DNA from: an uncultured Methanolobus sp.
GTDB taxonomy: Archaea > Halobacteriota > Methanosarcinia > Methanosarcinales > Methanosarcinaceae
DNA length: 64,000 nt
Direction: 5' to 3'
Assembly: GCA_963675495.1 (NCBI GenBank)
Contig: OY776215.1
Location: 2,048,001 to 2,112,000 of the forward strand
Shown here: piece after piece, positions 7,245 through 35,271 of the stretch
Numbering within the stretch: the first letter of the stretch is position 1
How the letters are laid out: every line of letters begins with the position of its first letter
Notes under the pieces: generated by a model
The model's input: the letters and a program-made list of their open reading frames with translations, nothing else
Database searches by the model: none
What the model was told of the DNA's origin: nothing
Made by a program: the position numbers and the translations under genes

Positions 7245-7266
7245 TTATATCACTCTCCTATGTGGA

Positions 7267-9561: not shown

Positions 9562-9587
9562 TTTGTAACCTTTTGTTCTCTTATTTT

Positions 9588-9605
9588 TTGTAGGTAGGCC
9601 TACAA
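9588..9605. promoter_or_regulatory. DtxR/IdeR-like palindromic operator upstream of feoA
   Basis: TTGTAGG-TAGG-CCTACAA inverted repeat just downstream of a minus-strand TATA element (about 9618-9626). Confidence 0.6.
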
Positions 9606-9819
9606 TGTGTAACCGGGTATATATTATTTTCTGTTGACTTGAATTAATAGGTCTATTTACAATATGTATGCATGCAAACGTCGGTTGTAAATAAGCAAGA
9701 ACAGGACTGTCCGAACGGAGTCAAAAAAGATGGCCAAGACTACAGGTTTGAAATTGAAAATTCGATGTAGAAAAAGAAAACTGCAGTCGGATGCTGCAGA
9801 TTAAAAAGAAATGAAATAT

Positions 9820-11304
9820 TTATTCCTGGCTTTCGATGAGTTCGTATATCTTATTCATGTCAAGGCAGCTTTCAACTATCTCTGCAAGCTCCTCATATGC
9901 CTCATCTTCAGTTGTAATGGTTTCAGGCTGATACTCTATGCCTTTCTTTTCAGTCAGATAGATCATTAGGGCATGCCTGATGTTCTCATTCTCAAAAAGT
10001 CCGTGAAGATATGTGCCCACTACAGTGCCACTTTCATCAATGCTGCCGTCATCACCAAAAACAGTTCTTGGTGTTTTGGTTGCACCCATGTGAATCTCGT
10101 AGCCCCATATCTCGTCACCCTTAATGTTTTTGAAAATCGGTCCATCGGCTACTACCTCTTTTTGGACCTGGATGGTCTTCTTCTTGTATTCGCCGAATGA
10201 TGTTTCGATGTCAAGCAAACCAAGTCCTTCATAGTCTGCCTCAACTCCGTTCTCTATGCCGGAATCGTGGATAACTTTACCAAGCATCTGATAACCGCCA
10301 CAAATTCCAAAGATAGTTGCTTTTCCTTTAAGGTTGCGTATCTGGATATCCATGCCGCTTTTCTGGAGGTCTTGCAGGTCGCTGACAGTATTTTTTGTAC
10401 CAGGGATTATCACGCAATCAGGTGTTCCCAGATTTTCATCAAGATCAACATACCTGACGTTTGCAATCCTCTCTAGCGGTTCAAAATCAGTAAAATTAGA
10501 TATTCTTGGCAGGCGTACTACTGCAATGTCAATATCGTTAATGTCTTCTTTTTCAACCCTGCCTTTCTTTTTCCTGATGGCCATGGAGTCTTCAGATGGT
10601 ATATTGAGCTTGTAATAAGGGAGAACTCCAAGAACAGGTACATCTGTCAGGTCTTCTAGCTGTTTTAACCCCGGTTCAAGTATTGCAGGGTCGCCCCTGA
10701 ACTTGTTAATGACGAAACCTTTGAGATTCTTGCTGACGTCTTCAGGCAGAAGCTCTTTAGTTCCATAGAGACTTGCAAAAACACCGCCTGATTCGATATC
10801 TCCTACAAGAATGATGGGTGCTTGTGTTATACGCGCGGTTCCAATATTGACGATATCCCTGTCATAGAGGTTGATCTCAGCAGCTCCGCCGGCTCCTTCC
10901 ATGACTATCAGGTCATATTCGGACTCAAGTCTTTCAAGGGCTCCCCTGAGTACACCGTGCATTTCCTCTATGGAATCGTAGTAGTTACCAGCAGTTTTAT
11001 CGGCATACGGCTCCCCAAGGACGATTACCTGTGATGTTCTGTCCCCTTTTGGTTTGAGAAGGACCGGGTTCATGTCAGCAGTTGGCTCAACTCCGGCAGC
11101 TTTGGCCTGTATTGCCTGTGCAATTCCGATCTCTTTTCCGTCTTTTGTGATCCATGAGTTGAGACTCATGTTCTGGGCCTTAAACGGTGCAACCTTATAT
11201 TTTCTGGAAAGGATCTTGCAAAGGCCTGTGACCATTATGCTCTTGCCCACGTCTGATGCAGTACCCAATACCAGTAGTTTCTTAGCTTTTTTCTTATTTT
11301 CCAT
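9820..11304 (-). CDS. cbiP: Cobyric acid synthase
   Basis: GTASDVGKS, PFKAQNMSLNS, EGAG, GICGGYQMLG, GTYLHG. Confidence 0.96.
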   Translation of the reverse strand: MENKKKAKKLLVLGTASDVGKSIMVTGLCKILSRKYKVAPFKAQNMSLNSWITKDGKEIGIAQAIQAKAAGVEPTADMNPVLLKPKGDRTSQVIVLGEPYADKTAGNYYDSIEEMHGVLRGALERLESEYDLIVMEGAGGAAEINLYDRDIVNIGTARITQAPIILVGDIESGGVFASLYGTKELLPEDVSKNLKGFVINKFRGDPAILEPGLKQLEDLTDVPVLGVLPYYKLNIPSEDSMAIRKKKGRVEKEDINDIDIAVVRLPRISNFTDFEPLERIANVRYVDLDENLGTPDCVIIPGTKNTVSDLQDLQKSGMDIQIRNLKGKATIFGICGGYQMLGKVIHDSGIENGVEADYEGLGLLDIETSFGEYKKKTIQVQKEVVADGPIFKNIKGDEIWGYEIHMGATKTPRTVFGDDGSIDESGTVVGTYLHGLFENENIRHALMIYLTEKKGIEYQPETITTEDEAYEELAEIVESCLDMNKIYELIESQE

Positions 11305-11417
11305 TGCAACCGCCCTAAATATTTTTGAATTGCTATACTATTTAGTAATAATGCAACAGTTTTATGAAGGACAACTTATATCTACTTAACTCCAGTTTAT
11401 CTTAGTTAAGGTGGAAC

Positions 11418-11972
11418 ATGACAGAACTTATGCACGTAAGTGGCGGTCCGACAAAACCGGAGATTATTGCAGTTGCCCTATCAAAACTTGATTTAATGGA
11501 TAATTGCAGATTTTTCGACATTGGTTGTGGTACGGGAGCCGTGTCTATAGAAGCTTCAAAAATGGTACGTGATATTAGTATATGTGCTATTGATGCAAGG
11601 GAAAAGGCAATTGATGTAACGAAGAAAAATTTCGAAGCATTTAAGATTACCAATGCCCAAGTGTTTTCCGGTGAATCATCTGAGATCCTGGAAAAGCAGG
11701 ATGTTGGTTCGATAGATTGTGCATTTATAGGTGGCACAAAGAATATTTCCCGTGTGCTTGAAGTGCTTGCTGAAAAAAAGACAAAGAGTATTGTGGTTAA
11801 CGCAGTCAGGATCGAAACGGTCGTAAACGTAATAAATAAGATGAAAGAACTTGACTTATTCGATGAGGTACTGCATTTAATTGTTTCGCGTGGTGCACCG
11901 ATTACCGGTGAAACCATGTTCAAACCTGAAAACCCGGTATATGTTGTTGTCGGTAGATCAGGTAAGAATTAA
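11418..11972 (+). CDS. cbiT: Cobalt-precorrin-6B C15-methyltransferase (decarboxylating)
   Basis: GPTKPEI, DIGCGTGAVS, AFIGG, NPVY. Confidence 0.92.
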   Translation: MTELMHVSGGPTKPEIIAVALSKLDLMDNCRFFDIGCGTGAVSIEASKMVRDISICAIDAREKAIDVTKKNFEAFKITNAQVFSGESSEILEKQDVGSIDCAFIGGTKNISRVLEVLAEKKTKSIVVNAVRIETVVNVINKMKELDLFDEVLHLIVSRGAPITGETMFKPENPVYVVVGRSGKN

Positions 11973-11998
11973 TCTTTAATCTTGATGGTGATAAAAAA

Positions 11999-12610
11999 AT
12001 GCTTGTTGGAGTTGGACTTGGTCCGGGAGATCCGGAGCTTCTTACATTGAAAGCTGTTGAAAGCCTGAAAAATGCATACAAGGTATACGTTCCCGGTCCC
12101 ATGGCTGCGGACCTGGTGGCACCTTATGCAAAGGCAGAGATCCTTGAATTCCCCATGTTGACAGATTATGATGTGCTAAATGCCGTCTGGAAAAAGAATG
12201 CTGACATGCTTGCTGAAGAATCAAAGGACAACCTTGTTGTTTTTGGTCTTATCGGCGATCCTAACTTTTTCTCAACATTCACTCATTTAAAGCGTGTGAT
12301 GAAAAAGTTCTATCCTGATGTTGAAACAGGAACAATTCCGGGCATCAGTTCTATTACATCATTTGCAGCACAGACCGGGGCAGAAGTTGACTCTTCTTTT
12401 GAGGTCAGCGATGGTTCAGATAGCCAGTATAAGATCAGGTTGAAGGCAAGTAAACCACTTGAGATCATCAACTCATTTGAAAAGGAAGGTTTTAATAAAT
12501 TCACATTCTGTGAACGCCTTTTCAGTGATAGGGAAGTTATTATTACAGAAAGAGAGAAGATTCCTGAAAAGGGCAACTATTTCAGTATAGTCTTCGCAGA
12601 AAAGGAATAG
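11999..12610 (+). CDS. cbiL: Cobalt-factor II C20-methyltransferase
   Basis: [30 protein letters not shown]. Confidence 0.9.
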
Positions 12611-12627
12611 TCACAAGGAGAATCAAG

Positions 12628-13371
12628 ATGACAGATAAAAAAGTCTATTTTGTAGGGTCAGGCCCCGGAAATGCGAAATATATAACCGTAATGGGCAAAG
12701 AGCTTCTTGAAGGAGCAGACCTTGTAATATATGCAGGTTCCCTTGTGAATCCTGAAGTGCTTAATTACTCTAAAGGGGAAAAAATCGACAGTTACGGACT
12801 TACCCTTGATGAAACCAACAAACTGATCGTTGATAACCTCAATGCAGGCAAGAAAGTTGTAAGGTTACACAGTGGCGATCCATCACTCTATGGTTCCATC
12901 GTTGAGCAGATCGAAGAACTGAAGAAATTCGATGTAGTGGTTGAGATCATACCAGGTGTCTCTTCAGTATTTGCAACTGCAGCTGCATTGCAGACACAGC
13001 TTACCCTAAATGACGTTTCAGAAACTCTTATTATTACACGCCCTGCCGGCAAGACCCTTGAGAAGGACCAGATAAAGGAGCTCTCAAGACACAACGCAAC
13101 AATGGCTGTTTTCCTGGGAACCCAGAAAATAGAGCAAATAATGGAAAAGGTGGAATATGCACCTGACACACCGGTTGCAGTGGTTTTCCATGCATCCTGG
13201 CCAGACCAGAAGATAATAAAAGGTACTGTGGCAGATATCGCCGGAAAGGTAAAGGAAGCAGGCATCATACGTTCTGCAATGATCCTTATCGGTGGAGTTG
13301 TTGATCCTGTGGACTATGGAAATTACGGGAGGTCTTACTTATACGGAGTGGCACAAGAACCGCTATCATAA
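12628..13371 (+). CDS. cbiF: Cobalt-precorrin-4 C11-methyltransferase
   Basis: [28 protein letters not shown]. Confidence 0.93.
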
Positions 13372-13880
13372 CCTTTGAGAGAAATCTTGAGGTTGCAGAG
13401 CGCCTGGCAGGACATCTGAACGCTGATGTTCTTATGTACGATAAAAGCGTCTTCAAAAGGGCCTTTGAGCAGTATGATGTCATCGTGGCAGTATTCGCCA
13501 CGGGCATTGTTGTGCGTGAGATCGCACCACTTATTGAAGATAAATGGAAGGATCCTGCAGTTATTGTAGTGGATTCGAGTATGAATTTCGCGATTCCACT
13601 GCTTGGCGGTCATCATGGAGGCAATGAGGCTGTCAGAAAGATAGCTGAAATTGGTCCTGTTCCGGTTGTCACAACTGCTACGGAAGTTCATAACAGAAAT
13701 TCCGTTGAGGGTATTGCCAAATCCCTTGGATGTAATATTGTGAACAAACCTTCCACTGTGCAGGTGAACTGTGCTTTGCTTGATGAGGATGTTGAGGTCC
13801 TTGAAATAAAAGGTCCTAAAATAGTCATTGTCGGGGACGATGTTTCGGTCCTGAAAAAAGAAAAGGCAGAAAACGCATGA
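13341..13880 (+). CDS. cbiG: Cobalt-precorrin-5A hydrolase, N-terminal subunit (probable ATA start)
   Basis: [28 protein letters not shown] motifs; frame is open upstream of ATG 13434 to an ATA at 13341 preceded by GGAGGT. Confidence 0.88.
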
Positions 13881-14230
13881 TCATAGGTATCGGAGCCCGA
13901 AGGGGCATCAACAGCCAGGAAGCAATCGATGCTATCAATAATGCGCTTGCTGAGGCAGGCAGAAGTATCGATGACGTGCATGCTCTGGCATCTGCTAAAT
14001 TAAAAGAGAACGAAGCGGGTCTTCATGAGGCAGCAGAAATTCTCGGAATTGGAATTACTTTCATTGATCACGATGAATTGAATACTTATGATGCGCCATC
14101 AGCTTCGCAGGCAAAACGCTTCGGGCTTAGAGGTGTGGCAGAACCTGCTGCATTGGCGTTGTCGGAAAAAAAAGAATTGATACTAAGGAAGAAAGTATAT
14201 GGTAGGGTCACAATCGCAATCGCAGAGTGA
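13877..14230 (+). CDS. CbiG C-terminal / CobE-like subunit
   Basis: [28 protein letters not shown]. Confidence 0.88.
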   Translation: MIIGIGARRGINSQEAIDAINNALAEAGRSIDDVHALASAKLKENEAGLHEAAEILGIGITFIDHDELNTYDAPSASQAKRFGLRGVAEPAALALSEKKELILRKKVYGRVTIAIAE

Positions 14231-14996
14231 AGCAAAAGGAAAGCTTTACATTATTGGTATAGGTCCGGGTTCTGTCGAACAGTTAACTGTTAAGGCAAGG
14301 GATGTAATCCTTAATTCTGATTATATTGTCGGAAACGGTACCTATCTTGACCAGATGGCAAGCCTGCTGGACAAACAGGAGATCGTTCGCAGTGCCATGG
14401 GTAAGGAAGTTGACCGTTCACGCAAGGCAGTGGAGCTTGCACAGGAAAACGTTGTTTCCATGATAAGCGGTGGGGATGCAAACATTTACGGTATGGCAGG
14501 TCTTGTCCTTGAAGTGGCAGAACACGCAGATCTGGATGTTGAGATAGAGGTCCTTCCGGGTGTCACAGCTATCACAGCAGCAGCAAGTGTGCTTGGTGCA
14601 CCTATCGTTAATGACATGTGTACAGTAAGTCTCAGTGATCTTCTGACTCCGTGGGAAGTAATTGAGAAAAGGCTTGATGCAGCAGCATCCGCAGACTTTG
14701 TGATGTCACTGTACAACCCAAAGAGCCGCCAGCGCAAATCCAATTTCTCAAAGGCTATTGAGATTATCAGGCGTCACAAGGATGATTCAGTTCCTGTTGG
14801 TCTTGTAAAGAATGCCCTGAGGGACAAGGATCAGGATTACATAGTCACAACCCTTGGCGAGGTAATGGATCACAATGACTGGGTGGACATGAGCACTACT
14901 ATTCTTATCACCACCAATGATTCCCGTATATGGGAGTCCGAACATGGCAAGAGGATAATTACACCAAGGGGGTATCATAGGAAATATGACTACTGA
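14199..14996 (+). CDS. cbiH: Cobalt-precorrin-3 C17-methyltransferase
   Basis: GIGPG, SGGDANIYGMA, SLSDLLTPWE.IEKRL, LYNPKS, TPRGY. Confidence 0.95.
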   Translation: MVGSQSQSQSEAKGKLYIIGIGPGSVEQLTVKARDVILNSDYIVGNGTYLDQMASLLDKQEIVRSAMGKEVDRSRKAVELAQENVVSMISGGDANIYGMAGLVLEVAEHADLDVEIEVLPGVTAITAAASVLGAPIVNDMCTVSLSDLLTPWEVIEKRLDAAASADFVMSLYNPKSRQRKSNFSKAIEIIRRHKDDSVPVGLVKNALRDKDQDYIVTTLGEVMDHNDWVDMSTTILITTNDSRIWESEHGKRIITPRGYHRKYDY

Positions 14997-15705
14997 ATCC
15001 AAAAAGACAGACGCAAGTATCGAAGAACTTGTGGAAATGACCACTGAGATCGACCCTGAGCTTGTGGATATCTGTACCGACCTTGGGTCACAAACCGATG
15101 AGGCCAAGGCAATTTACATGACCAGTCGCAATATTGCTAAAAAGCTCGTTGGCGATGATACTATTGAGGATAAAGTAAGGCAGCGTTGTGTTACCTCAAC
15201 AGGTGACCCTGCGGTTGCAGACCTCATGCGTTTTGTCAATGATCCTATCAAAGCAGGCGTGGAAGCTATTAAAAAAGGTGCTCCTATTCTTGTTGACATC
15301 AACATGGTCAAGGCAGGTATCACCAAGAGGGGTCATAACTGTGAGATTATCTGTGTACTCGACAAGGATGAGGATGCAGAATTTGCACGCAAGCATGGAA
15401 TCACAAGGACTGCAGCAGGTTTCCTGAAATGCAAGGACATACTTGAAGGTTCTATTGTCGCTATCGGAAACGCACCATCAGCTGCTTTTGCAGTATGCAG
15501 GATGGTTGAGCACGGTATCAAACCGGCAATTGTTGTTGGCACTCCTGTAGGATTCGTCAATGCAGCAGAATCCAAGGAAGTTGTCAGAGGCGCACCGGTT
15601 CCATCTATTACATGTGTTGGAACACGTGGTGGAACTCCAATGGCAGTTGCATGTGTCAATGAACTTGTAGCAATAGCAAACGATGATGAATGTGTCATTG
15701 ATTGA
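14986..15705 (+). CDS. cbiC: Cobalt-precorrin-8 methylmutase
   Basis: DINMVKAGI, TRTAAG, IGNAPSA, GTPVGFVNAAESK, RGGTP. Confidence 0.95.
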   Translation: MTTESKKTDASIEELVEMTTEIDPELVDICTDLGSQTDEAKAIYMTSRNIAKKLVGDDTIEDKVRQRCVTSTGDPAVADLMRFVNDPIKAGVEAIKKGAPILVDINMVKAGITKRGHNCEIICVLDKDEDAEFARKHGITRTAAGFLKCKDILEGSIVAIGNAPSAAFAVCRMVEHGIKPAIVVGTPVGFVNAAESKEVVRGAPVPSITCVGTRGGTPMAVACVNELVAIANDDECVID

Positions 15706-15762
15706 ACACATTCACTTTTTCTAATTTTTGTTCTTATTCTGACTGTTCTCTTGTTTCTGTTA

Positions 15763-17583
15763 TTACTGTTTTCTTCTGTTGGTCACAATGAATGAACATA
15801 TCAGCAAAGCAATTACTCCGATGATTCCTGTAAATCCGGGCGAATCTTCTTCATGTCTTTCCTGAGTTGCCTGTGGTACATTTGCATTTTCTGCGGCCAG
15901 CTGATAATTCTTGTTGCTGCCGATGGTGTATGAACCTGTGTCAGGCGCCCTGTCATACAGTGTACGGCTGGACTTGTCCGGATTAAGGTGAACTTGTCCG
16001 ATTCCTGTCTTTACATCTTCGCCTGAAAGCCATTCCTTTGTCTTATCAGTTTCCGGGATATTGGCACCATAGACCACAAGAGCGGTTTCCACATCTATGT
16101 TCATGTTCCCGTCATCATTGCCAAGTAACACTGATGGAATGCTAAGGTACATTTTGTTGTCCTGCATGGTTACAAGGTGTGAAACTTCCTTTACTCCGAA
16201 TTTTCCATCATAGTATCCTATCATGGTGGCAGCAAGTTTACCGTACATCAGATTGTAGACAAGTGAGTAATCTTCCGTTCCATCCTGGTTAGTATCAAAG
16301 GAAATAGTTGTGATAGCGCCATCGTCCAGACTCAGGCTGGTATAGGTGACAGTTATGAGCATTTTGTCTTCAGAGAATCCTGTATCTACGGATACGATAT
16401 CGTCCCCATCATGTCCGAAGCCTGTGGAATCAGATGCAGGGTCTGTGAATCTTGTCCTATCATTCCCATAGCTTAGTAATGCTTTTATGGAACCTTCTGA
16501 AGTATCAATTGCTCCATTACCGTTGTCGGGTATGCTGTCAATATTGCCTCCAAGGGCATCATTTATTGTGAAGGAATCAACCGTCAAGTACATTTTCCCG
16601 TCATCATTTCCAAGTAGTACAAGTGGAACACCGATGAAAACCTGGTTTCCAGAGACTTTGAACGTACCATCATTGTATGGTACTCCCAAGCTTCTTGTGA
16701 TTGTGTCAGAGTATCCCTCTTTTGCAAGAGCAGAATTTTTATTTATCATCCTTATGTCTACATCTGTGCCTGTAAGGCTTCCAACGGTGTACTCAATAAT
16801 GTAGTCCACTCCAAATGTTGGAGGAGCTTGCTCAGTATTGGTAAAACCTGTTGCTAGCTGCTGGTCAATATCAATGTTAACCCAGCCGGTGATATCCTCT
16901 CCATATGAAAAGGCGTTGGGTTCGACATTATTGGCATAGGTTATTACAAGGGCCAACCTCCCATTTCCAACAGTTGCCTCAATATTTTCTATATCTGCAA
17001 CACCGCCATTTCCTGTCATGTCGGTGATGCGTGTGTTGCTTGCAGCAGTTTGCGTTATTTTGACATCTCCTGTATTGGTGTCAATTACTCCATAATCAGG
17101 TGCTCTGTCAAAATCGAGTGCTTTTACCATCTGGTCGTGGACCGCAACGAAAACATCGGCACTTCCGTCATCATTGCCAAGCATCCACAAGGGTAGCGTG
17201 ATGTATATGGTATTGCCCTGGGCAAGGATTGTGCCTGAGTCTACCATGTCATCATTAAGTGTCGTGGTTATCATGGGGTCAGAGTAGATTATGCTCATGT
17301 AATTGAATTGGTATACATAATCTGCCCCATTGTCTGAATATCCTGTATGGATGTTCTGGTCTGTGTCAATGAAAACAGCTCCATAAAAACTATAATCTGC
17401 AATATCCTCTGTACATGTTAAGATAATATTGAGATTGTTTCCATCATTTGAAACATCCAGTGAACTTATGTCAGGGGAGTAAAAATCTCCGGTCGTATCC
17501 GGAATGGCAGCCAACGATGTAGTTAAAATGCAAGTATAAATTATAGCAATAATTCCAGTTAATATCGATTTTCTGAATTCCAC
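15763..17583 (-). CDS. Secreted cell-surface protein with three repeated beta-rich domains and PGF-CTERM anchor
   Basis: N-terminal signal peptide; C-terminal SPGF + TM + RRK; three L(L)GNDDG-containing repeats. Confidence 0.8.
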   Translation of the reverse strand: MEFRKSILTGIIAIIYTCILTTSLAAIPDTTGDFYSPDISSLDVSNDGNNLNIILTCTEDIADYSFYGAVFIDTDQNIHTGYSDNGADYVYQFNYMSIIYSDPMITTTLNDDMVDSGTILAQGNTIYITLPLWMLGNDDGSADVFVAVHDQMVKALDFDRAPDYGVIDTNTGDVKITQTAASNTRITDMTGNGGVADIENIEATVGNGRLALVITYANNVEPNAFSYGEDITGWVNIDIDQQLATGFTNTEQAPPTFGVDYIIEYTVGSLTGTDVDIRMINKNSALAKEGYSDTITRSLGVPYNDGTFKVSGNQVFIGVPLVLLGNDDGKMYLTVDSFTINDALGGNIDSIPDNGNGAIDTSEGSIKALLSYGNDRTRFTDPASDSTGFGHDGDDIVSVDTGFSEDKMLITVTYTSLSLDDGAITTISFDTNQDGTEDYSLVYNLMYGKLAATMIGYYDGKFGVKEVSHLVTMQDNKMYLSIPSVLLGNDDGNMNIDVETALVVYGANIPETDKTKEWLSGEDVKTGIGQVHLNPDKSSRTLYDRAPDTGSYTIGSNKNYQLAAENANVPQATQERHEEDSPGFTGIIGVIALLICSFIVTNRRKQ

Positions 17584-26393: not shown

Positions 26394-27164
26394 TCAAAAT
26401 GTATCCTGATTGAAATAGTCAAAGGTTGTTGAGACTGAACTGACTATTACTTCTGAATTATTCCTGATGACATACTCGCTCAGCCCGACATCACTGTTCG
26501 GATTTCCCCAGTCGTATGTATATCCCAGTCTGCTCCACGGGTACTCGTCATAGGTGGAACTGTTAAGGGAATTGAACCATCCGGCATGTTCCGGTGCGAC
26601 ATTCTCATGAAAATCAAGTTGAGCCTGTGTGTCTGTAATCTCAGGATCAGGACTTGGTCTGAAAAGGTCATCCGGTCTGACCCACATTTCCACAAAATAC
26701 TCGTTCCCGTCATCATAAGGAAGACCTATGAGTTGCTCCAGCCGGAGTGTTAGCTCATCATCCTGGATGTCGTTTTGCTCAAAAAATCCTTTCAATTCAG
26801 GAATGACCATCACCCATGTGTCTCCCCACCATGTAAACACCTTTGAGTTGACAGGGTAGCTTTCAGGATATTTTGTCCATGTGACAACAAGGACATAATC
26901 ATTTCCTGAATCTTCCATCCATTGAAGTTCAGTATTAGATTCGATTATCGGTGACAGTCCTGTATATATCTCGTCCTCTTCGGCTACAATTGTGTCTTCT
27001 ATTGCAGCCATGTACATTTGTTCAAGGTCTGTCACTTCAGCATACAGGTTTGATTTGAAAAGTTCTCCTGTGTTTGGAACCTGTTGCTGCTGCTCTTCGA
27101 CACATCCAGCAGAAAAACCTGCTATAAATAAAATGATTAGAATAAACGTTGTTGTTAATCTCAT
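26394..27164 (-). CDS. Putative lipoprotein
   Basis: Signal peptide with FSAGC lipobox; LEQLIGLP, LFRP, YPWSRLGYTYDWG motifs. Confidence 0.8.
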   Translation of the reverse strand: MRLTTTFILIILFIAGFSAGCVEEQQQQVPNTGELFKSNLYAEVTDLEQMYMAAIEDTIVAEEDEIYTGLSPIIESNTELQWMEDSGNDYVLVVTWTKYPESYPVNSKVFTWWGDTWVMVIPELKGFFEQNDIQDDELTLRLEQLIGLPYDDGNEYFVEMWVRPDDLFRPSPDPEITDTQAQLDFHENVAPEHAGWFNSLNSSTYDEYPWSRLGYTYDWGNPNSDVGLSEYVIRNNSEVIVSSVSTTFDYFNQDTF

Positions 27165-27396
27165 AGCGTATCTCCTATTTCGCTGTTCAGTATTTGTTTT
27201 GCAGAAATAGATCTCAAATATTTATGCACTAGTATAATATATTATTATTTATTATACGACTTGCCAAAAATCTCTTATTTATCTGCCAGTCAGAGCATTT
27301 CTGCAATGCAACTATCTGATATGCTCACACACTACTCCAATCACCACAAAATCTATAATCTCAAACGTAATACTACATATTATATTTTTTTAATGT

Positions 27397-27467
27397 GCGA
27401 CTGTGGTTTAGTGGTATGACCGTGGCTTCCCAAGCCATGAACCCGGGTTCGAGTCCCGGCAGTCGCA
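27397..27467 (+). tRNA. tRNA-Gly (CCC)
   Basis: GCGACTG...CAGTCGC-A acceptor, GTGGC-TTCCCAA-GCCAT anticodon arm, CCGGG-TTCGAGT-CCCGG T arm. Confidence 0.96.
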
Positions 27468-27617
27468 TGCTCTATCGGATGCTGCTGTTTCTTGTATGAG
27501 TGAGAGCTGTTTTTCTACTGCTTTGAGTCTTGATTCTAGAGTGCTTAGTGGTTCAGAGTTTAAACTATCATGGTCTATGACTACTAAAAAGTTTGAATTA
27601 ATTCCTACTAAATACAT
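27408..27617 (-). pseudogene. Putative Int(N) fragment of an SSV1-type split integrase
   Basis: ORF reads into the tRNA-Gly 3' half on the same strand as the Int(C) remnant at the far end of the island. Confidence 0.4.
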
Positions 27618-27692
27618 AGGGAAATTAATTTATTTATTAGGTCAATAAACAGTATGAATATAAACGGCTAATCATTTGAGGAATGGTGCAAA

Positions 27693-30164
27693 GTGACAGA
27701 CACAAAAAAGGTTTATTTTGAATTCGATTCACGTATACTAACTCAATTGGGTGAAAAACTTGTTCCAAACAAAGCTGTCGCTTTAGCTGAATTAGTCAAA
27801 AATTCATATGATGCTGATGCAACAAAGGTCACAATTAGAGGGCGAGACCTTAGATATCCTGGTGGAACAATAATTGTTGAAGATGATGGATTAGGGATTC
27901 AAGAAGCAAGATTTCAAAACACTTGGATGAGAGTTGCAACTCTTGAAAAAGATGCAAACCCATTTTCGAAAAAATATAGAAGGCAGCGAGCAGGAGAGAA
28001 AGGGATTGGACGTTTTGCCTGCAGAAGACTATCAAGTAAATTGAGATTGATTTCTGTTTCTGAAACTAAAAACGGAGAAAAAGAAAAAATAAATGTTATC
28101 TTTAGATGGGATGATTTTTTACCTGGATCTGATGCTGATAAAGTCGGAAGTGACTTGACAAAAGAAAACGTCGACAAAGATACACCTACTGGAACAAAAC
28201 TAATTTTGGAAAATGTTTATGATGCATGGGATGGAAGAAACATAATAAAACTTAAAAATGAATTAAGTGATTTATTTGCCCCAGCTTCATATAGGAATAC
28301 TGTTGGCGAAACTGACCCTAGTTTTAATGTTAATTTTGATATTCCTGAGTTTGCGGGTGGAGTCATCTCAACGGATAAGCAATTTTTTGGCAGTGCTTGG
28401 GCTAAAGTCACTGGTCGCATAAATGAAAATGGTGTTGCAACTTATGATATCAAAGTTCTCAACAAAATTATAAAAAAAGTCAGCCAAACGTTTGAAAAGT
28501 CAGACTCTTTTGAAAATATAAAAAATATCACATTTGAAGCATATATATTTTCATATCGATCCGACCTTTTTAGAAATTCAGACTGGAAAATGGACAAGGT
28601 TAGAAAACTGAATTTGGAAAAGGGTGGAATCAAAGTATATGCCGATCAATTTAGGGTTTTTGGGTATGGAGGAGAAGGAGATGACTGGTTATCTTTAAAC
28701 TATGATCGTTCTAGATCATTAGCTTCCTTGGACAAAGAAATTAACCAATATTCAATGGATGAGCGTCCTGGATTGAGACTATTTAGAAATCAAAACATAT
28801 TTGGACATGTTATTTTCGGAAGGAACGATAATCCAAATTTGGAAATAACAATTAATAGAGATCGATTGCTAGAAAATAATTCATTTGAGGAACTGAGAAA
28901 ATTTGCGAGGCTAGCCATCGATTTTGCTACTGTTGTATACTCAAATGAACTTTCCAGAGAGCAAGAAATCATAAATATCGAGAAAAAAAGGGAAGAAGAA
29001 GAAAGAAGAAAAAGGGAGGAAGAAGAAAGAAAAAAAAGGGAAGAGGAGAAGCGCAGGGCTGAAGAAGAAAGAAAAAGAGCCGAAGAGCGAATTAGAAAAG
29101 CAGAAGAAGAAAGAAGAAAAGCTGAAGAACGCGCAAGGAGAGCTGAAGAAGAGAGGAGAAAAGCTGAAGAAAAAAGAAGAAAAGCTGAAGAAGAAATCCT
29201 CGATGCATTAGAAGGGCGATATAGGGACAATTTAAATAGTGCTCTTGACGAAGAAAGTGAGGCGAGAAAAAAAGAAGAAGAAGAAAAAAAGAAAGCAGAA
29301 GAAGAGAAGAGAAAAGCTGAAGCGGAAAGGAGAAAAGCTGAAGAAGAGAAAAGAAAGGAAGAAGAAAAAATAAGAAAAGAAAAGGAAGAAGAAAGGAGAA
29401 AAGAAGAAGAAAGATTTAAAAAAGAAAAAGAGAAAATTGAATTAGAAAAATCTCAATTGAAAGTTTTAGCTTCAACAGGCACCTTGGTTTTAATTTTAGA
29501 GCATGAAATGCAAGGTCTAATTAACGATATGGAAGCAATGATTCATAATTTTTCGTCTGCAATACAGAGTTTACCTGAAACTAAACAGGAAATATATCAA
29601 AAGAATCTCGAGTCTTTTTCTAATAGAACTGAGATGGTTCAAGAATTTGGAAAGTTCTTGGGTTTGACTGTTATTGGAAAAGGAAAATTAGAGAAAAAAG
29701 AATGGGTCCTTTACCCAGTCGTAAATAAAGTATACAAACCATTTGAGTGGTATTTTAAGAAGAAAAGCATTGATTTTGAGAACTCAATCCCTGAATATAT
29801 AAGAATGCCAAGCATGTATGGCTCTGAACTAGTCTCTATCCTTCATAATCTCATGTCAAATTCACTTAAAGCTGTTAAAGGCACACAAGATCGGAGAATA
29901 AAAATTATAGCATATGAGGATGATGTAAATCTTAACATCCATTTCCTTGACTCTGGAAAAGGATTAGATGAAGCATATTGGGAAGAAGTATTTCTTCCTT
30001 TTGTAAGTTACAGTGAACCAGATACAAGATTTGGAGTCGGAACTGGGTTAGGGCTAAAATTAGTAAAAGACTTTGTAGAATCTTACGATGGAACCATACA
30101 ATTTATTGCCCCTCCTGAGAATTGGAATACTTGTATTGCTATCTCATTTCCACTAGAGGAATAA
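27693..30164 (+). CDS. MORC/GHKL ATPase - charged helix - histidine kinase fusion
   Basis: N-term ELVKNSYDADA, EDDGLG, GEKGIGRFA, TGT; C-term EHE H-box, NLMSNS, DSGKG, FLPF, GTGLGL. Confidence 0.88.
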   Translation: MTDTKKVYFEFDSRILTQLGEKLVPNKAVALAELVKNSYDADATKVTIRGRDLRYPGGTIIVEDDGLGIQEARFQNTWMRVATLEKDANPFSKKYRRQRAGEKGIGRFACRRLSSKLRLISVSETKNGEKEKINVIFRWDDFLPGSDADKVGSDLTKENVDKDTPTGTKLILENVYDAWDGRNIIKLKNELSDLFAPASYRNTVGETDPSFNVNFDIPEFAGGVISTDKQFFGSAWAKVTGRINENGVATYDIKVLNKIIKKVSQTFEKSDSFENIKNITFEAYIFSYRSDLFRNSDWKMDKVRKLNLEKGGIKVYADQFRVFGYGGEGDDWLSLNYDRSRSLASLDKEINQYSMDERPGLRLFRNQNIFGHVIFGRNDNPNLEITINRDRLLENNSFEELRKFARLAIDFATVVYSNELSREQEIINIEKKREEEERRKREEEERKKREEEKRRAEEERKRAEERIRKAEEERRKAEERARRAEEERRKAEEKRRKAEEEILDALEGRYRDNLNSALDEESEARKKEEEEKKKAEEEKRKAEAERRKAEEEKRKEEEKIRKEKEEERRKEEERFKKEKEKIELEKSQLKVLASTGTLVLILEHEMQGLINDMEAMIHNFSSAIQSLPETKQEIYQKNLESFSNRTEMVQEFGKFLGLTVIGKGKLEKKEWVLYPVVNKVYKPFEWYFKKKSIDFENSIPEYIRMPSMYGSELVSILHNLMSNSLKAVKGTQDRRIKIIAYEDDVNLNIHFLDSGKGLDEAYWEEVFLPFVSYSEPDTRFGVGTGLGLKLVKDFVESYDGTIQFIAPPENWNTCIAISFPLEE
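28985..29430 (+). repeat. Purine-rich imperfect 21-nt tandem repeats (EEERRKA units)
   Basis: GAAGAAGAAAGAAGAAAAGCT-like units in two blocks inside the kinase gene. Confidence 0.85.
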
Positions 30165-30167
30165 AAT

Positions 30168-31280
30168 ATGACAATAAAGACCCTCTACATAGATGACGAA
30201 GAAATTGATCTAGCAAGAAATAAAGACTATTTTGAAACATACGCAGATAATCGCTTTGAATTAGTAACTTGTAGACCTTTTGATTTGTCTGAGGTTTATA
30301 GGTGCATAAATACCTGCTCACCGGAATTAATTTTAGTGGATCTTGATTTAAGTTCTGCTGATGAGAATGATCATGTAATTGGGCTCAATGGTTTAACCTT
30401 AATGACAGAAATCAGACAAAATTTCCAGGGAATTCCTCTTGTTCTTTTCACTAAAAAAAGTCTGTTTGAAAGTGATATCTTACCAGTTCCTGAAAGCTTA
30501 CTTTACACTATTGATCTAATTGTGTATAAAGAACAGGTGTCCAAGCATGATCCTACATTATTAGATGAATTGTACAGTCTTGCTAATGGATATCATATAT
30601 TGAGAGAACATAGCGAACTTAATTGGGAAAAAGTTCTTGAATTATTGGGAGCTGATGAAGAAGATTATGATGACATAAAAGCATCCTCACCTCCTGGGTT
30701 ATTAACAAATGTCTCTCTTTATTCAACTATTGAAATTTCAAAATGGATAAGAAAAATATTACTCCAATTTCCAGGAATTATATATGACTCATTGCATGCT
30801 GCGACTTTCTTAGGTATTTCTGAAAAGGAGTTTTTAACAGAAGAAATCCAACGTCATTTTTCAGAAGCAGAATATTCAGGATTATTTTCTACTCCGGAAC
30901 TTAAAAAATACTGGTGGAAATCGAAGCTATCCAAGATTGCCTACACAGGCATGAACGATGACGAATCAAGGATTCCACTCCGCAAAGCCTTCCCTACTGT
31001 TTGGGAAAGAATGAATTGTAGTGAGTTAGAAAAAGCAAAATGTGTCTGTAGTGGAGAGTTTCCAGCAGAATGGGTATGTTATATTCTCAAAAAACCAGTG
31101 ATGTTAAAATATTCACTTTTGTACCACCCAGATTCAAGGCCAGAAATAATGGATGAAGCAAGAGTTTCATTTAAAGCAGTTATTACTTCAAATGAAATTA
31201 ATGATGATTTAATTGATTCTATGTCAAAAGATACATTAAAAAATATTAGGCGCAGTGGGGGAAAATACTGTGGAGATTAA
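30168..31280 (+). CDS. Receiver (REC) domain protein with large unknown C-terminal region
   Basis: LYIDDE, ILVDLDL phosphoacceptor, NGL, LFT; starts 3 nt after the kinase stop. Confidence 0.82.
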   Translation: MTIKTLYIDDEEIDLARNKDYFETYADNRFELVTCRPFDLSEVYRCINTCSPELILVDLDLSSADENDHVIGLNGLTLMTEIRQNFQGIPLVLFTKKSLFESDILPVPESLLYTIDLIVYKEQVSKHDPTLLDELYSLANGYHILREHSELNWEKVLELLGADEEDYDDIKASSPPGLLTNVSLYSTIEISKWIRKILLQFPGIIYDSLHAATFLGISEKEFLTEEIQRHFSEAEYSGLFSTPELKKYWWKSKLSKIAYTGMNDDESRIPLRKAFPTVWERMNCSELEKAKCVCSGEFPAEWVCYILKKPVMLKYSLLYHPDSRPEIMDEARVSFKAVITSNEINDDLIDSMSKDTLKNIRRSGGKYCGD

Positions 31281-32055
31281 AGAATATCCCAAAAATCTAA
31301 ATCTGTTAGCGAAAAATAAACATTTATTTAGATTTTTTGATGGCCGCAGTCGATCAATGTTAATAAAGCAAGCAGATGATTTAGCTAACGCATTAAATAG
31401 AAGTGGAGCTACTAATCCTTGTTGGAGTTTTTGTATTCCAAGAGATACGCCCTTTGAGTTCATTCAGAATAATGGATTACAAGTTGACATTTCTTGTATA
31501 ATCGAAGGGAAAGGCAACAATATATCAAAGCAAAATTTTGAGATAAGAATTTGGTCACTGGACGAAAACTTAAGCTACAGAGAAGGAATTGATTCTCCAG
31601 AGCTTAGAGCTGAATTGGAACAATCTAGCTGGAAAAGAGTAGTTTCTCGTTTTCATTTTGATTTACGAGTAGATGACAGCGGAATGGAGGATAACGAAGA
31701 GAAAAGAAAAAAGAAAAAGAATAAAATTCCAGAGCCTATTTGTCATCTACAAGTGGGTGGTGATTCTGGCAGTTTTGTAACAAATGGTTACCAAGACATC
31801 AAAGAAAACTGCTGGCACCCTAAAAAAGTAGCAGTCCCTCGATTTTTCCATCTACCTTTTGATATGATACTTATATGCGAGTTTATACTAGTTAATTTCT
31901 TTCCAAATGAAACAGAAGATTTGCGCAAAAGAGACGAATGGATTCAATTGGTCAAAGATAGTGAAGAATTGTTTTTTAAACCCTATCTTGAAATGTATAT
32001 TAATTATTTTTATGATGATAGAGAGACAATGCTTGGAAACCTCATTTCAACTTAA
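31270..32055 (+). CDS. Hypothetical protein, DUF2290-like motif pattern
   Basis: RFHFD...PICHLQVGG...PRFFHLPFD..L...IL.NFF; GTG 31270 (or 31255) overlaps the REC stop. Confidence 0.7.
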   Translation: MEIKEYPKNLNLLAKNKHLFRFFDGRSRSMLIKQADDLANALNRSGATNPCWSFCIPRDTPFEFIQNNGLQVDISCIIEGKGNNISKQNFEIRIWSLDENLSYREGIDSPELRAELEQSSWKRVVSRFHFDLRVDDSGMEDNEEKRKKKKNKIPEPICHLQVGGDSGSFVTNGYQDIKENCWHPKKVAVPRFFHLPFDMILICEFILVNFFPNETEDLRKRDEWIQLVKDSEELFFKPYLEMYINYFYDDRETMLGNLIST

Positions 32056-33693
32056 GCACAATGGTTTACTGCTCCCTAACTTTTCTGCCTGCAGAATATT
32101 TAATACTATAGTATCCAATTCATTTTCTGTTAGAGGCACATTCTCCTTCACTTTTTTACCTATGAATTTAATAGTTTTGATATTGGGCAATCTTAAATTT
32201 TTGATATCAGATGCATTCACTTGCGTATGTCCATTCAAAGATCTAAAGTATTTATCTACAATAGAAGAATTAAAAAGAGATGCAAGACCCCACGCCTCTT
32301 CTTCAGTAAGTTCGCCATTTACTCTATAAATACAGTTTAAATGATTTTCAATACCAATATATTGATGAGTGCTAAATTCCGATTTATTCAATACTGATGC
32401 ATACAGCCTGCGATTTTGTTCTTTTGAACTGAATCTTTTCAATAAAACATAATTTTGAATTGGCAAAAGCATCTTCTTAGTAGATAAATTTACTTTGATA
32501 CATCTTTCTTTCTTGTTACTACTTGCAGGCCATATTATTTTTAGACCTTGGAGATTATGCATCCACAGTAATGGAGCAACATTTGATTTTTTAGAACAAT
32601 CACTGAGATTCTCTCTAGTCCTGAATGGCACAACAGCTCCAGTAGATACAGACAAACCAAAATCCTGTAAAGTATTCGGCCATTCATCTAATTCAGTTAA
32701 AATTTCTATATCTGCAGCGGATGTGGGCACTCTTATAAAAATATCATTATTGTTACTATACAAGACACTTTTCTGATTGGCTTCAATTAGTGTCAAATCA
32801 TCAAATGATTTTCCTTTACTGTAAGTAATCTTTATTGTGTCATCTTTTTTTGACTTATTATTAATAACTTTGAAGATAATATTTTCCTGGAGTATTCCAT
32901 CTTCTACAAACAAGTCCTTTCTAGATTCAAAAAGATGTAGCTGCTTGAAAGAAATAGCATTTGTGAACCATTTCCTGAATTTCTGATAATAATATCCAGA
33001 ACAAAAACTTCTAGGAGTTATAAACACCATTTCTCCATTTTTTTGTAACATCTTGACAGATAATGCCATGAAAGAAGCATAGATATTAGTGTGCCCATAA
33101 TCTTGGCATTTCATCGCTATGGACTGTGGTGAATTCTTATTCAGTTTATAGTATGGAGGGTTTGAAACGATCACATCATAATAAATTAATTTATCTTGTT
33201 CCCATGGTGCAATCAAAGATTTATTCAAGTATTTTGCATTGTGCAAAACAAAATCTTGTTCGTAAATGTTGTATTTAAAAGTATGTGATTTTTCATTTAA
33301 CAGCTTCTTACATGATTGTAGTACTCTCTTTAACAGTGGTAGTAATGAAGGATCATTTTCATAGCAATCCACAGTTAAAACAATGGGTTTTTTACGTTCT
33401 ACAAGAATACGATTGCAAATTGCTGCAATTAAAATCCCAGAACCAGAACCAGGATCCAAAACTCGTATTTTCTCCTGATCTATATCTATCAATGAAGACA
33501 TGTAACAAGCAACTTCTGCAGGTGTGAAAAATTGTCCATGGATTTTTCTATAATCATAGTCATAGAATTGTCTAAATAGCTTAGACAGACCTATAGCATA
33601 TGAAACCAAGTCATCTTCCTTATTTATTGCAGGAATATTCACTTCATTCATCGTTGTCTCCGATTCATGTTGCAGGAAATATTTGAACATCAA
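32047..33693 (-). CDS. N6-adenine DNA methyltransferase, Eco57I/PstI/BsuBI-like
   Basis: GQFFTP, LDPGSGSG, NPPY, TPRSFCSG.Y, KRFSSKE, IENHLN, NGHTQVNA. Confidence 0.92.
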   Translation of the reverse strand: MMFKYFLQHESETTMNEVNIPAINKEDDLVSYAIGLSKLFRQFYDYDYRKIHGQFFTPAEVACYMSSLIDIDQEKIRVLDPGSGSGILIAAICNRILVERKKPIVLTVDCYENDPSLLPLLKRVLQSCKKLLNEKSHTFKYNIYEQDFVLHNAKYLNKSLIAPWEQDKLIYYDVIVSNPPYYKLNKNSPQSIAMKCQDYGHTNIYASFMALSVKMLQKNGEMVFITPRSFCSGYYYQKFRKWFTNAISFKQLHLFESRKDLFVEDGILQENIIFKVINNKSKKDDTIKITYSKGKSFDDLTLIEANQKSVLYSNNNDIFIRVPTSAADIEILTELDEWPNTLQDFGLSVSTGAVVPFRTRENLSDCSKKSNVAPLLWMHNLQGLKIIWPASSNKKERCIKVNLSTKKMLLPIQNYVLLKRFSSKEQNRRLYASVLNKSEFSTHQYIGIENHLNCIYRVNGELTEEEAWGLASLFNSSIVDKYFRSLNGHTQVNASDIKNLRLPNIKTIKFIGKKVKENVPLTENELDTIVLNILQAEKLGSSKPLCLS

Positions 33694-33946
33694 GAATAAG
33701 TATAATCACATATAAACTATGATGGTTATTATTGTTATTATTATTATTATTAAATTTTTGGAATATATATCTTTGGTTTTTAGATTTCTCTCTTGGAGAC
33801 CACATCTGTCATCAAAATCACCTTTTTGTAACTCTCGTTTCAGTTGTAGAGATTATCCAAATAGCTCATTGTCCACTGAATCAGTTAAGCGTCCTCTCAT
33901 TAGCTAGGTTTGATACTTAACGACTTTAGAGACAGATTGCTATGTA

Positions 33947-34245
33947 TCAACCAGACATTACCTCGATTAGAGCAGGTCGCACTTTCTTATAGCTCACCTT
34001 TGAGTTGTTGAGCTTATCCAGATAGTTAGTCATCAACACTGAACCATTTGAATGTCCTATCATATATTTAATAAGAGATTCCTGAATCCCTGCTTTCACA
34101 CACTTGTCAATGAAGAAGTTACGACCATATTTAAGTGAAAGCCCATTTAGCCGAATGTACTTTCTTGCGTAGTTTTCACTAATTTCAGTTCTCTTTAACT
34201 GTTTTGCAAACTCGACGGGCATGGATGCTTTGAAGGCTTTTTTTG
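33947..34245 (-). pseudogene. C-terminal remnant of an SSV1-type tyrosine integrase
   Basis: KKAFKASMP.EF, KYGRNFF, IKYMIGH, ..NYL catalytic Tyr; N-terminal part missing. Confidence 0.75.
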
Positions 34246-34350
34246 CATCGAAGTATACTGAAAAAATAAACCATCACAAAAGAATACAGAATCTATATAA
34301 TCTATGGGGGAACATCATTATTTGTTCATAAATTTAGAGGAGTGGAGTAA

Positions 34351-35271
34351 ATGAAATTATACAAAATAATTGTGGCTTTGCTTGTTGCAACAACTGTCCT
34401 TTTATCAGGCTGTGCTGAGCAACCCCAGGCAGAAGAAATGGATATTGTAGAGACCGCGGTAGCTGCCGGCTCATTTAATACTCTTGTGACTGCACTGCAG
34501 GCAACAGGACTTGATGAAACCTTAAGCGGTGAAGGACCATTTACAGTATTTGCACCAACTGATGAAGCATTTGATGCATTGCCCGAAGGTACCCTTGATT
34601 CATTGTTGGAAGATGAGGAGGCACTTACAGCCATACTTACCTACCATGTAGTTGCAGGTGAAGCGATGTCAACAGATCTGTCCGATATGATGGCTCTTGA
34701 AACGGTACAGGGCGAAGAGGTTATCGTACACATAACCGACGGGAATGTAATGGTTGGTGATGCAAACGTAGTACAGGCAGATATTGAAACCAGCAATGGA
34801 GTCATCCACGTAATAGATAAGGTCATACTGCCACCATCTATGATGGAAGCCGATGAAATGGATATTGTAGAAACCGCAATAGATGCTGGTTCATTTACCA
34901 CTCTTGTGACTGCACTTCAGGCAACAGGACTTGATGAAACCTTAAGCGGTGAAGGACCATTTACAGTATTTGCACCAACTGATGACGCATTTGATGCATT
35001 GCCCGAAGGTACCCTTGATTCATTGTTGGAAGATGAGGAAGCACTTACAGCCATACTTACCTACCATGTAGTTGCAGGTGAAGCAATGTCAACAGATCTG
35101 TCCGATATGATGGCTCTTGAAACTGTTCAGGGTGAAGAGGTTATCGTACACATAACCGACGGGAATGTAATGGTTGGTGATGCAAACGTAGTACAGGCAG
35201 ATATTGAAACCAGTAATGGAGTTATTCACGTAATAGATATGGTCATACTGCCACCGTCTACGAATAATTAA
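34351..35271 (+). CDS. Fasciclin (FAS1) domain lipoprotein, two domains
   Basis: LSGC lipobox; [24 protein letters not shown] twice. Confidence 0.95.
34435..35258 (+). repeat. Near-identical direct duplication, 420-nt period
   Basis: Sequence lines at 34501-34800 and 34921-35220 are nearly identical. Confidence 0.92.

Follow-up and report, generated by a model that had tools for sequence, protein, structure and literature searches.

Fusions of a MORC/MutL-type ATPase with a histidine kinase have been described beside restriction-modification (R-M) genes, and a gene of this kind opens the four-gene cassette analyzed here, which is carried by an archaeon, an uncultured Methanolobus sp. The cassette lies at positions 27,693 to 33,693 of a stretch of 64,000 nucleotides (assembly GCA_963675495.1, contig OY776215.1, positions 2,048,001 to 2,112,000), referred to below as the window. 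Its genes encode an ATPase-kinase (g1), a receiver protein (g2), a protein distantly related to DUF2290 (g3) and a DNA adenine methylase. A survey that, by its own description, covered bacteria only reported proteins with the domains HATPase_c_3, HEF_HK and HATPase_c, which are associated with Response_reg_2 proteins in the vicinity of type II R-M genes (Bellieny-Rabelo et al. 2021, PMC8011034). A reading of the window made before any database search, called the original prediction below, had given MORC ATPase-histidine kinase fusions with adjacent receivers in R-M neighborhoods as background, and the text of the survey bears this out.

Ambrosia (AbrR/A/B/C/D), described in 2025, has been validated as a defence of Pseudomonas aeruginosa against phage (bioRxiv 10.1101/2025.09.30.679545). 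According to the description in the preprint, its genes encode an XRE regulator, an N6-adenine (N6A) methylase, a histidine kinase (HK)/HATPase protein, a protein joining a receiver to a winged helix-turn-helix (REC-wHTH), and an HNH nuclease. All of the domains are stated to be needed, and the receiver mutation D60A abolishes defence; reporters at the methylase and the nuclease positions are induced on infection, and the phage is not protected by methylation (bioRxiv 10.1101/2025.09.30.679545). A further system, Helicase+DUF2290, in which DUF2290 is the second gene, is described as protecting E. coli against T7 (Rousset et al. 2022, PMC9122126).

We propose, with a probability of roughly 0.55, that the Methanolobus cassette is a mobile four-gene defence unit against mobile genetic elements, combining an R-M-like pair with a cytoplasmic two-component relay. 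It recurs as a block in many bacteria and archaea, and so is probably an anti-virus system related to Ambrosia of Pseudomonas. The four genes are as follows.

27693..30164, + strand: g1, soluble fusion of a GHKL (MORC/MutL-type) ATPase, a coiled coil and a histidine kinase, 823 amino acids (Pfam, motifs)
30168..31280, + strand: g2, receiver protein, 370 amino acids (alignment, model, receiver fold)
31270..32055, + strand: g3, 261 amino acids, distant DUF2290 relative, presumed effector (hhalign, model)
32047..33693, - strand: Eco57I-type (gamma-class) N6-adenine DNA methyltransferase (Pfam, PADLOC)

The coordinates of the open reading frames (ORFs) agree with the three tightly coupled genes and the converging methylase of the original prediction. 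The gap between g1 and g2 is 3 nt. The start of g3 can be placed at 31270, as in the recorded product (P0005, 261 amino acids), or at GTG 31255, which gives the longest ORF (266 amino acids), the overlap with g2 being 11 nt from the former and 26 nt from the latter. The methylase gene and g3 are convergent, and their 3' ends share 9 nt. The longest methylase ORF begins at TTG 33693; an ATG 14 codons downstream appears, from the translation, to be the more probable start. The methylase matches the Pfam families Eco57I (E 1.9e-16) and N6_Mtase (E 2.5e-09).

Recurrence of the block and comparison with described systems

The original prediction had proposed co-occurrence of the genes elsewhere as a check, and the block does recur. 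Two scans were carried out, one of a genome collection seeded with g2, which gave 29 loci, and one of metagenomes seeded with the closer g3 subfamily (a narrower alignment), which gave 48 loci. In the genome loci, g1 lies directly upstream of g2 in 27 of the 28 that could be assessed (L008 starts at g2; L016 has no g1), and g3 lies directly downstream of g2 in 25 of 27 (L010 and L029 end too early; L001 and L016 are without g3). Of the 26 genome loci that could be assessed for it, 23 have an Eco57I/N6_Mtase methylase next to the other genes; L001, L016 and L027 have none. In the assessable metagenome loci, g2 is upstream of g3 in all 41 and the methylase is adjacent in 37 of 38. These observations support a real conserved system and not a chance neighborhood. 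No further conserved gene was found among 110 flanking ORFs of related loci. The flanks are housekeeping genes in many loci, two flanks contain transposases, and R-M genes of type I, type III or ISP adjoin the cassette in three (L002, L015 and L024).

The orientation of the methylase is mostly co-directional with the other genes; it is convergent in five loci, as in the window, and upstream at L023. At this last locus, from Anaerolineae, the methylase (6141-7655, + strand) stands upstream of g1 and not beside g3, so the methylase has no fixed place in the cassette. The hosts are not specifically archaeal either, and the methanogen framing of the original prediction was too narrow: 20 of the 29 genome loci come from bacteria, of many phyla (Pseudomonadota, Chloroflexota, Acidobacteriota, Verrucomicrobia, Desulfobacterota, Planctomycetes and WOR-3), and nine are archaeal (Methanoperedens, ANME-1, Methanotrichaceae, Methanoregula, Methanomicrobiaceae, Parvarchaeota, Woesearchaeota and one other archaeon).

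It was expected in the original prediction that only the methylase would be recognized by PADLOC. A strong match was obtained for the methylase alone (MTase_II, E 1.8e-127); g1 has only weak matches, to MzaB (E 2e-05), REase_II and JetC, and g2 has none. The cassette as a system listed in PADLOC was rejected on this ground, g3 also being without a match.

To compare the cassette with the published kinase family, four HEF_HK loci were fetched (L045, L046, L047 and L048). Two of them, L045 and L048, have the order C5 methylase, kinase (~985 amino acids), Response_reg_2 protein (547 and 565 amino acids), HNH_2 nuclease and Vsr; in L046 and L047 the methylase and the kinase are present, and the order after the kinase is readable in part. 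The g1 profile matches all four HEF_HK proteins, with E between 1e-33 and 2e-45, although the Pfam model HEF_HK (PF19191) does not match g1 at E<=0.1. Because all four kinases are matched, g1 is homologous to the HEF_HK kinase lineage, while lying outside the Pfam model. The likeness extends to the architecture, as the paraMORC-kinase type of the survey has, by its description, a three-part build that g1 appears to share, no transmembrane segment, and a receiver gene directly downstream (PMC8011034). Both kinds of operon also include a methylase and a fourth, small gene.

The partners of the kinase are different. The assignment of g2 to Response_reg_2 (PF19192) was rejected, since no Pfam match was found at E<=0.1 and profile comparison of g2 with three Response_reg_2 proteins by hhalign gave 0.1%. 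PF19192 has no match at E<=10 anywhere in the genome of the window. The length of g2 is 370 amino acids, compared to 530-565 for the Response_reg_2 proteins. The g3 profile does not match the HNH_2 proteins of the HEF_HK operons; g3 occupies the position of the nuclease, because HNH_2 follows the receiver protein at L045 and L048. The published kinase type is thus accompanied by C5 methylases, HNH_2 and Vsr, whereas the cassette has an Eco57I-type N6A methylase and a DUF2290-like gene.

Compared by description, Ambrosia is like the cassette in having a type II-associated N6-adenine methylase, a cytoplasmic HK/HSP90-like ATPase, a receiver with an acceptor Asp (essential in Ambrosia) and a small effector gene, and both are R-M-like without being a classical R-M system (bioRxiv 10.1101/2025.09.30.679545). 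The effector described for Ambrosia is a type IV-like HNH nuclease, in contrast to the DUF2290-like g3, which has no HNH. The HipB-like XRE gene described there has no counterpart in the cassette, which has no room for one: no ORF of at least 80 amino acids is present in the 224 nt between the upstream tRNA gene and g1, or between the methylase and an integrase remnant on its other side. AbrC carries a wHTH, by the preprint's description, and the C-terminal domain of g2 matches no family. Ambrosia is reported from Gammaproteobacteria alone, whereas the cassette occurs in many bacterial phyla and in archaea. The original prediction knew of no characterized system of this composition, a statement that no longer holds, as Ambrosia is analogous on the preprint's account (bioRxiv 10.1101/2025.09.30.679545). 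The composition of the cassette is precedented: its logic is that described for Ambrosia, and g1 is homologous to the paraMORC-kinase family. Set against the published description, the novelties relative to Ambrosia are a receiver of another family, a DUF2290-like effector where Ambrosia has HNH, the lack of an XRE gene, and the spread into archaea.

Helicase+DUF2290 is like the cassette in that the gene for a small protein follows a partner gene bearing an NTPase. The partner described there is a UvrD/SF1-type helicase, with no methylase reported in the description, whereas the partners in the cassette are a kinase and a receiver (PMC9122126). Pfam scans and the flanking ORFs of related loci gave no helicase in the cassette. 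A bona fide DUF2290 gene that was fetched for comparison follows an ORF that reads as helicase-like from its translation. An idea similar to the one proposed here is reportedly realized in Detocs, where a histidine kinase is said to sense infection and a receiver domain to switch on the attached effector post-translationally. Detocs reportedly consists of a TPR-type sensor kinase, an Hpt-like buffer protein and an effector (mostly PNP) fused to the receiver, with no methylase.

The kinase, the receiver protein and the DUF2290-like protein

In agreement with the original prediction, which had described g1 as having two GHKL modules, an H-box and a complete C-terminal kinase, Pfam places HATPase_c_3 at residues 29-128 (E 6.5e-22) and HATPase_c at residues 712-822 (E 6.2e-22) of the protein. 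When 24 homologues are aligned, no variation is seen in the ATP-binding motifs of the N-terminal GHKL module (E33/N37/D40, D64/G66/G68 and G101/K103/G104/G106), in H604 of the H-box, or in the four boxes N, G1, F and G2 of the C-terminal module (N723, D753/G755/G757, F767/F770 and G781-G787). The phospho-acceptor His of a DHp domain is therefore followed by a CA domain with all four boxes, which is the arrangement of a class I histidine kinase. Searched against the PDB, the g1 family profile matches the DHp and CA core of HK853 (2c2a) with E 3.6e-19, and its N-terminus matches MutL with E 2e-06; in NCBIfam, the C-terminus is similar to many sensor kinases. The absence of a transmembrane or PAS sensor was also noted correctly there, as the Pfam scan of g1 shows no PAS family and no transmembrane-like stretch is present, the highest hydropathy over 19 residues being 1.02.

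Residues 130-420 of g1, next to the ATPase module, are conserved in the same alignment. A coiled coil follows at about residues 420-590, where E, K and R make up 127 of 171 residues; in the DNA it is seen as 21-nt periodic repeats at window positions 28956-29454, with 14 registers at 21-nt spacing. The long coiled coil is limited to the closer g1 subfamily, 10 of the 24 sequences, and is shorter by about 100 residues in the distant subfamily. It is noted that residues 11-195 of g1 align to positions 5-187 of the 659-position model of the restriction enzymes BbrUII/HgiDII (NCBIfam NF050001) with E 9.8e-19, at 67 bits, which is far under the model cut-off of 550. These enzymes share the N-terminal GHKL ATPase of g1; the rest of g1, coiled coil and kinase, is unlike their C-terminal part.

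For g2, 183 relatives were found at E<=0.001. In an alignment of 30 of these relatives, three residues never vary (D10, D58 and K121), and two more, D9 and T95, are conserved in at least 90%. The AlphaFold model has a predicted local distance difference test (pLDDT) score of 89.7, and its residues 2-150 have the receiver fold (Z 16.1, root-mean-square deviation 2.2 over 128 aligned residues, to 3bre_A). Foldseek gave 455 matches at E<=0.001; among the matches listed, all are receiver domains or response regulators that bear one. The Pfam model Response_reg stays below threshold (E 0.013, 16.1 bits against a cut-off of 30.2). All features of a receiver, namely the acidic pair, the acceptor Asp, the Thr/Ser, the Lys and the (beta/alpha)5 fold, are found in g2. 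The receiver Asp that the original prediction had considered intact is therefore D58, invariant and within a modeled receiver fold.

The remaining ~220 residues at the C-terminus of g2 are strongly conserved and have no match in the family libraries. Searches with phmmer against the PDB gave no relative below E 0.1 for this domain, the profile search of the PDB gave just weak receiver matches, and the ESM Atlas gave no usable match. Both fold searches were made with the whole protein and were filled by receiver matches. An extra domain of about 230 residues had been described here in the original prediction, with a Cys cluster in place of a recognizable helix-turn-helix (HTH). The extra domain, of about 220 residues, and the lack of an HTH family match stand. 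A conserved Cys cluster or zinc site was rejected: among the 30 relatives C304 never varies and C292 is kept in at least 90%, but C294 is not conserved, so the C-V-C-x9-C string is not a conserved cluster.

It should be mentioned that one g2 homologue stands by itself, at L016 (10001-11053, + strand, E 5e-54), without g1, g3 or methylase. Around it, between 3998 and 18273, are large genes with Hsp70-like, GrpE-like and zinc-ribbon domains. As this homologue stands alone, the g2 receiver family is also used in another context.

The third protein, g3, has no family match in Pfam, PADLOC or NCBIfam. A word-indexed search gave 14 relatives, and a profile search of 1.84 billion representatives gave 1131 at E<=0.001, of which 637 are at E<=1e-10; the g3 family is therefore large. 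The name "DUF2290-like" given to g3 in the original prediction is borne out as a distant relation. Profile-profile alignment by hhalign of 53 g3 relatives with 20 DUF2290 proteins gave 94.3% with E 9.8e-08 over 56 columns, and the residues most conserved in either family fall within these columns. The g3 relatives aligned with a single bona fide DUF2290 protein gave 83.4%, and a language-model lead for g3 as DUF2290 scored 0.89. The core common to the two families is R-F-x-x-D ... P-x-x-H-L ... G ... P ... (E/D)-F-(I/V)-L-x-N-F. Matches to the Pfam model PF10053 are sub-threshold, being found in 2 of 33 g3 family members (best E 0.025) and in 2 of 28 further relatives (best 21.2 bits, the gathering threshold being 25 bits); g3 itself has no match to PF10053, and neither do five genomes that carry the cassette. 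Based on these alignments, the relation holds at the superfamily level and is distant.

The model of g3 is confident (pLDDT 90.9). No solved relative of the fold was found, Foldseek against the PDB giving none at E<=0.001 and VIA-align wide reaching a best Z of 4.4 with no chain at Z>=5; a search of BFVD gave no viral relative. These blanks in searches with a model do not prove a new fold. Pfam shows no PD-(D/E)xK, HNH, GIY-YIG or PLD family in g3. The stretch at residues 198-216, with a hydropathy of 1.69, raised g3 as a membrane protein, which was rejected; with the acidic D203 and E209 inside it, the stretch forms a helix of a confident globular model, and is for this reason treated as a core helix.

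A signalling link from the receiver to g3 was part of the original prediction and now has the support of a single fusion protein and of a predicted complex. The natural fusion, P0147 (608 amino acids), is a metagenomic representative, one among the 150 relatives listed, in which a complete g2 occupies residues 1-358 and a complete g3 follows in frame at 368-606; its g2 part is 41% identical over 362 residues. The predicted complex of g2 with g3 has a score of 0.66, with 0.02 for the best of 3 controls. Scores at this level are attained by 116 of 157 solved complexes and by 2 of 215 mismatched pairs. At least 96% of contacts are common to the runs, and the partner has a pLDDT of at least 80. 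The predicted interface on g2 consists of residues 270, 301, 312-318, 326 and 350-356, and residues 221-232 of g3, including the conserved R224, E228 and W229, are placed against residues 312-318 and 350-356 of g2. The C-terminal domain of g2 is thus the predicted docking site for g3. The prediction supports binding of g3 by g2 but does not show it. Taken together, the gene overlap, the fusion and the complex prediction suggest direct control of g3 by g2.

The low-GC island at the tRNA-Gly site

The cassette is carried by an island with the following features.

27396..27468, + strand: tRNA-Gly (CCC), integration site and left boundary of the island (ARAGORN)
27469..34238, no strand: low-GC island carrying the cassette, ~6.8 kb (GC content and comparison with the flanks in G001)
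33947..34260, - strand: archaeal phage-type integrase, C-terminal remnant (PF16795)

The 1-kb bins between 27001 and 34000 have a GC content of 0.31-0.36, compared to mostly 0.37-0.48 elsewhere in the window. The integrase remnant matches PF16795 with E 1.7e-11 at profile positions 77-158 of 161. Another copy, further decayed, is present at about 33819-33900 (72.6% identical over 84 nt, E 5e-10). The right end of the island was also searched for a tRNA-derived att repeat, and none was found in the window.

Two genomes of the same genus, G001 and G006, have insertions at tRNA-Gly (CCC), each with a copy of 44-48 bp of the 3' half of the tRNA. In G006, a cassette 68-70% identical to that of the window is found inside an element of ~14 kb (L097, G006:C1:2149500-2167500, positions 2552-16595), which is bounded by tRNA-Gly(CCC) and a 44-bp copy of the tRNA 3' half. 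Its orientation relative to the tRNA is opposite to that in the window. The element has a 270-amino-acid ORF, part of which has 84% DNA identity to the integrase remnant of the window, and on this DNA likeness alone the ORF is taken as an intact integrase. The element also contains three other ORFs, with 168, 356 and 717 amino acids.

The site in G001 (L098, G001:C1:1309000-1319000, positions 4119-6315) holds other cargo of ~2 kb, with ORFs of 145 and 410 amino acids and no cassette, flanked by a 48-bp tRNA repeat. The two flanks of the window island are ~2.5 kb apart in G001, where the right flank resumes at window position ~34239-34261. As this site holds different cargo and no cassette, tRNA-Gly is an integration hot spot in the genus.

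Two neighbors of the island are noted. To the left of the tRNA, an ORF of 256 amino acids (26394-27164, - strand) has no Pfam family and 83-87% DNA identity in same-genus genomes. To the right, a fasciclin gene with two domains (34351-35271, + strand, E 8.3e-87) contains an internal direct repeat of 300 nt, 94% identical (34429-34728 and 34849-35148), and a related stretch occurs elsewhere in the genome.

Proposed working and alternative explanations

In the working that we propose for the defence unit, the Eco57I-type methylase would mark the host DNA and g1 would be the sensor, its N-terminal paraMORC-type GHKL ATPase possibly engaging DNA or a cue of infection. The original prediction had suggested more specifically that unmethylated DNA or R-M inhibition may be sensed, and that the outcome may be abortive infection. 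Through the coiled coil, the GHKL module would control autophosphorylation of H604 by the C-terminal kinase core, and the phosphoryl group could then move from H604 of g1 to D58 of g2. Such a relay is the natural reading of the two residues because both are intact and invariant. The receiver protein would hold g3 on its C-terminal domain, and phosphorylation would switch the g2:g3 unit on, after which g3, alone or with the C-terminal domain of g2, may damage the invader or the cell. What the data show directly is which domains the proteins have, that their catalytic residues are intact, that the block is conserved and carried on an island, and that g1 is homologous to the published kinases. 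Binding of g3 by g2 is supported in silico, and the cue sensed by g1, the phosphotransfer, the chemistry of g3 and the role given to methylation are inferred.

Several observations weigh against this working. The fusion P0147 is a single representative and could be a frameshift or an assembly artefact, since g2 and g3 genes overlap. One genome locus, L001, retains g1 and g2 without g3 or methylase, and the lone g2 homologue at L016 has another context altogether. At L028 (7436-13418), g1 and g2 are broken into several fragments, whereas g3 (211 amino acids) and a convergent methylase (521 amino acids) are open, a state that would fit a plain R-M pair too. A methylase was not seen at L027 and L091, both of which are short contigs. 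Both scans used the family's own patterns, with distant g3 relatives that have other partners left unsampled. No nuclease or other catalytic fold could be recognized in g3 or in the C-terminal domain of g2, the g2 fold searches being of the whole protein only. The authors of Ambrosia, as the preprint describes, favor transcriptional induction by the wHTH receiver protein AbrC and not direct activation of the effector (bioRxiv 10.1101/2025.09.30.679545). Finally, the C-terminal domain of g2 is largely helical in the model, with an HTH-like stretch at about 208-222 as judged by eye from the sequence and the model helices.

The last two of these points belong to the main rival, the Ambrosia model of transcriptional control, in which g1 would sense infection and phosphorylate g2, and g2 would bind DNA and induce the methylase and g3, the latter as an inducible effector or nuclease, with no need for contact between g2 and g3. 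What is described of Ambrosia fits this model, with its reporters induced on infection, its D60A mutation abolishing defence and its wHTH in AbrC (bioRxiv 10.1101/2025.09.30.679545), and the methylase, often on the opposite strand, has room for its own promoter. However, g1, g2 and g3 are co-directional and either overlap or lie 3 nt apart, so g3 would be co-transcribed with its own regulator. The g2-g3 fusion and the predicted interface between the C-terminal domain of g2 and g3 also argue for contact between the two proteins, and g2 has no HTH family match in Pfam or NCBIfam, is unrelated to Response_reg_2 by profile comparison, and is not accompanied by an XRE gene. We consider transcriptional control unlikely on this balance, though it comes closer than any other alternative.

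A good deal less probable is an ordinary type II R-M pair, with g3 as a divergent endonuclease beside the methylase and with the ATPase-kinase and the receiver as accessories, the whole being mainly a selfish addiction module. The accessory genes would tune or assist restriction, for instance by ATP-dependent DNA looping as proposed for paraMORCs. The adjacency of g3 and the methylase, often convergent with overlapping 3' ends, resembles many R-M pairs; the two remain intact at L028 where g1 and g2 have decayed, and are jointly absent at L001. It also agrees with an R-M pair that paraMORC ATPases are described as typical of R-M operons (PMC2292703) and that the N-terminus of g1 is similar to the BbrUII/HgiDII restriction enzymes. 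On the other hand, g3 matches no known nuclease family and no solved chain at Z>=5, and DUF2290, its sole detectable relative, works with a helicase, with no methylase reported in the published description (PMC9122126). The catalytic residues of the kinase and the receiver are invariant across phyla, which argues for a core rather than an accessory role.

Very improbable is a non-defence role, as a cytoplasmic two-component pathway controlling adenine methylation, DNA repair or the maintenance of the carrier element, which could draw on the housekeeping genes in many flanks and on the described action of MutL-type ATPases in repair too (PMC2292703), whereas the patchy, cross-domain distribution, the placement on a tRNA island with integrase sequence, the three loci beside type I, III or ISP R-M genes, the described enrichment of the related kinase family near R-M systems (PMC8011034), the relation of g3 to DUF2290 and the analogy to Ambrosia as described all argue for defence.

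We return to the defence unit and to what it would mean. Two-component signalling in R-M-like immunity was shown to work only recently, in one Pseudomonas preprint as described (bioRxiv 10.1101/2025.09.30.679545), and the cassette extends this logic well beyond that case, to numerous bacterial phyla and to several lineages of archaea, methanogens and ANME among them. The logic is modular, with a constant kinase combined with exchangeable receiver proteins, methylase classes and effectors. A broader and more tentative suggestion, which we hold to be possible but doubtful, is that of an immune family spanning bacteria and archaea, whose paraMORC ATPase would engage DNA and signal directly and post-translationally, through His-to-Asp phosphotransfer, to a receiver with a bound DUF2290-class effector. 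If true, this would give the first mechanistic handle on the licensing of DUF2290 effectors, and archaea would have their first two-component immune relay, ending in an effector whose fold is without a solved relative. The DUF2290-like protein in the position of the HNH nuclease, together with its predicted docking on the receiver protein, offers a testable route to what the DUF2290 superfamily does, and the cassette offers a way into two-component immune signalling beyond Proteobacteria. Methylase and effector may also hinder transformation, a point of interest for methanogen genetics.

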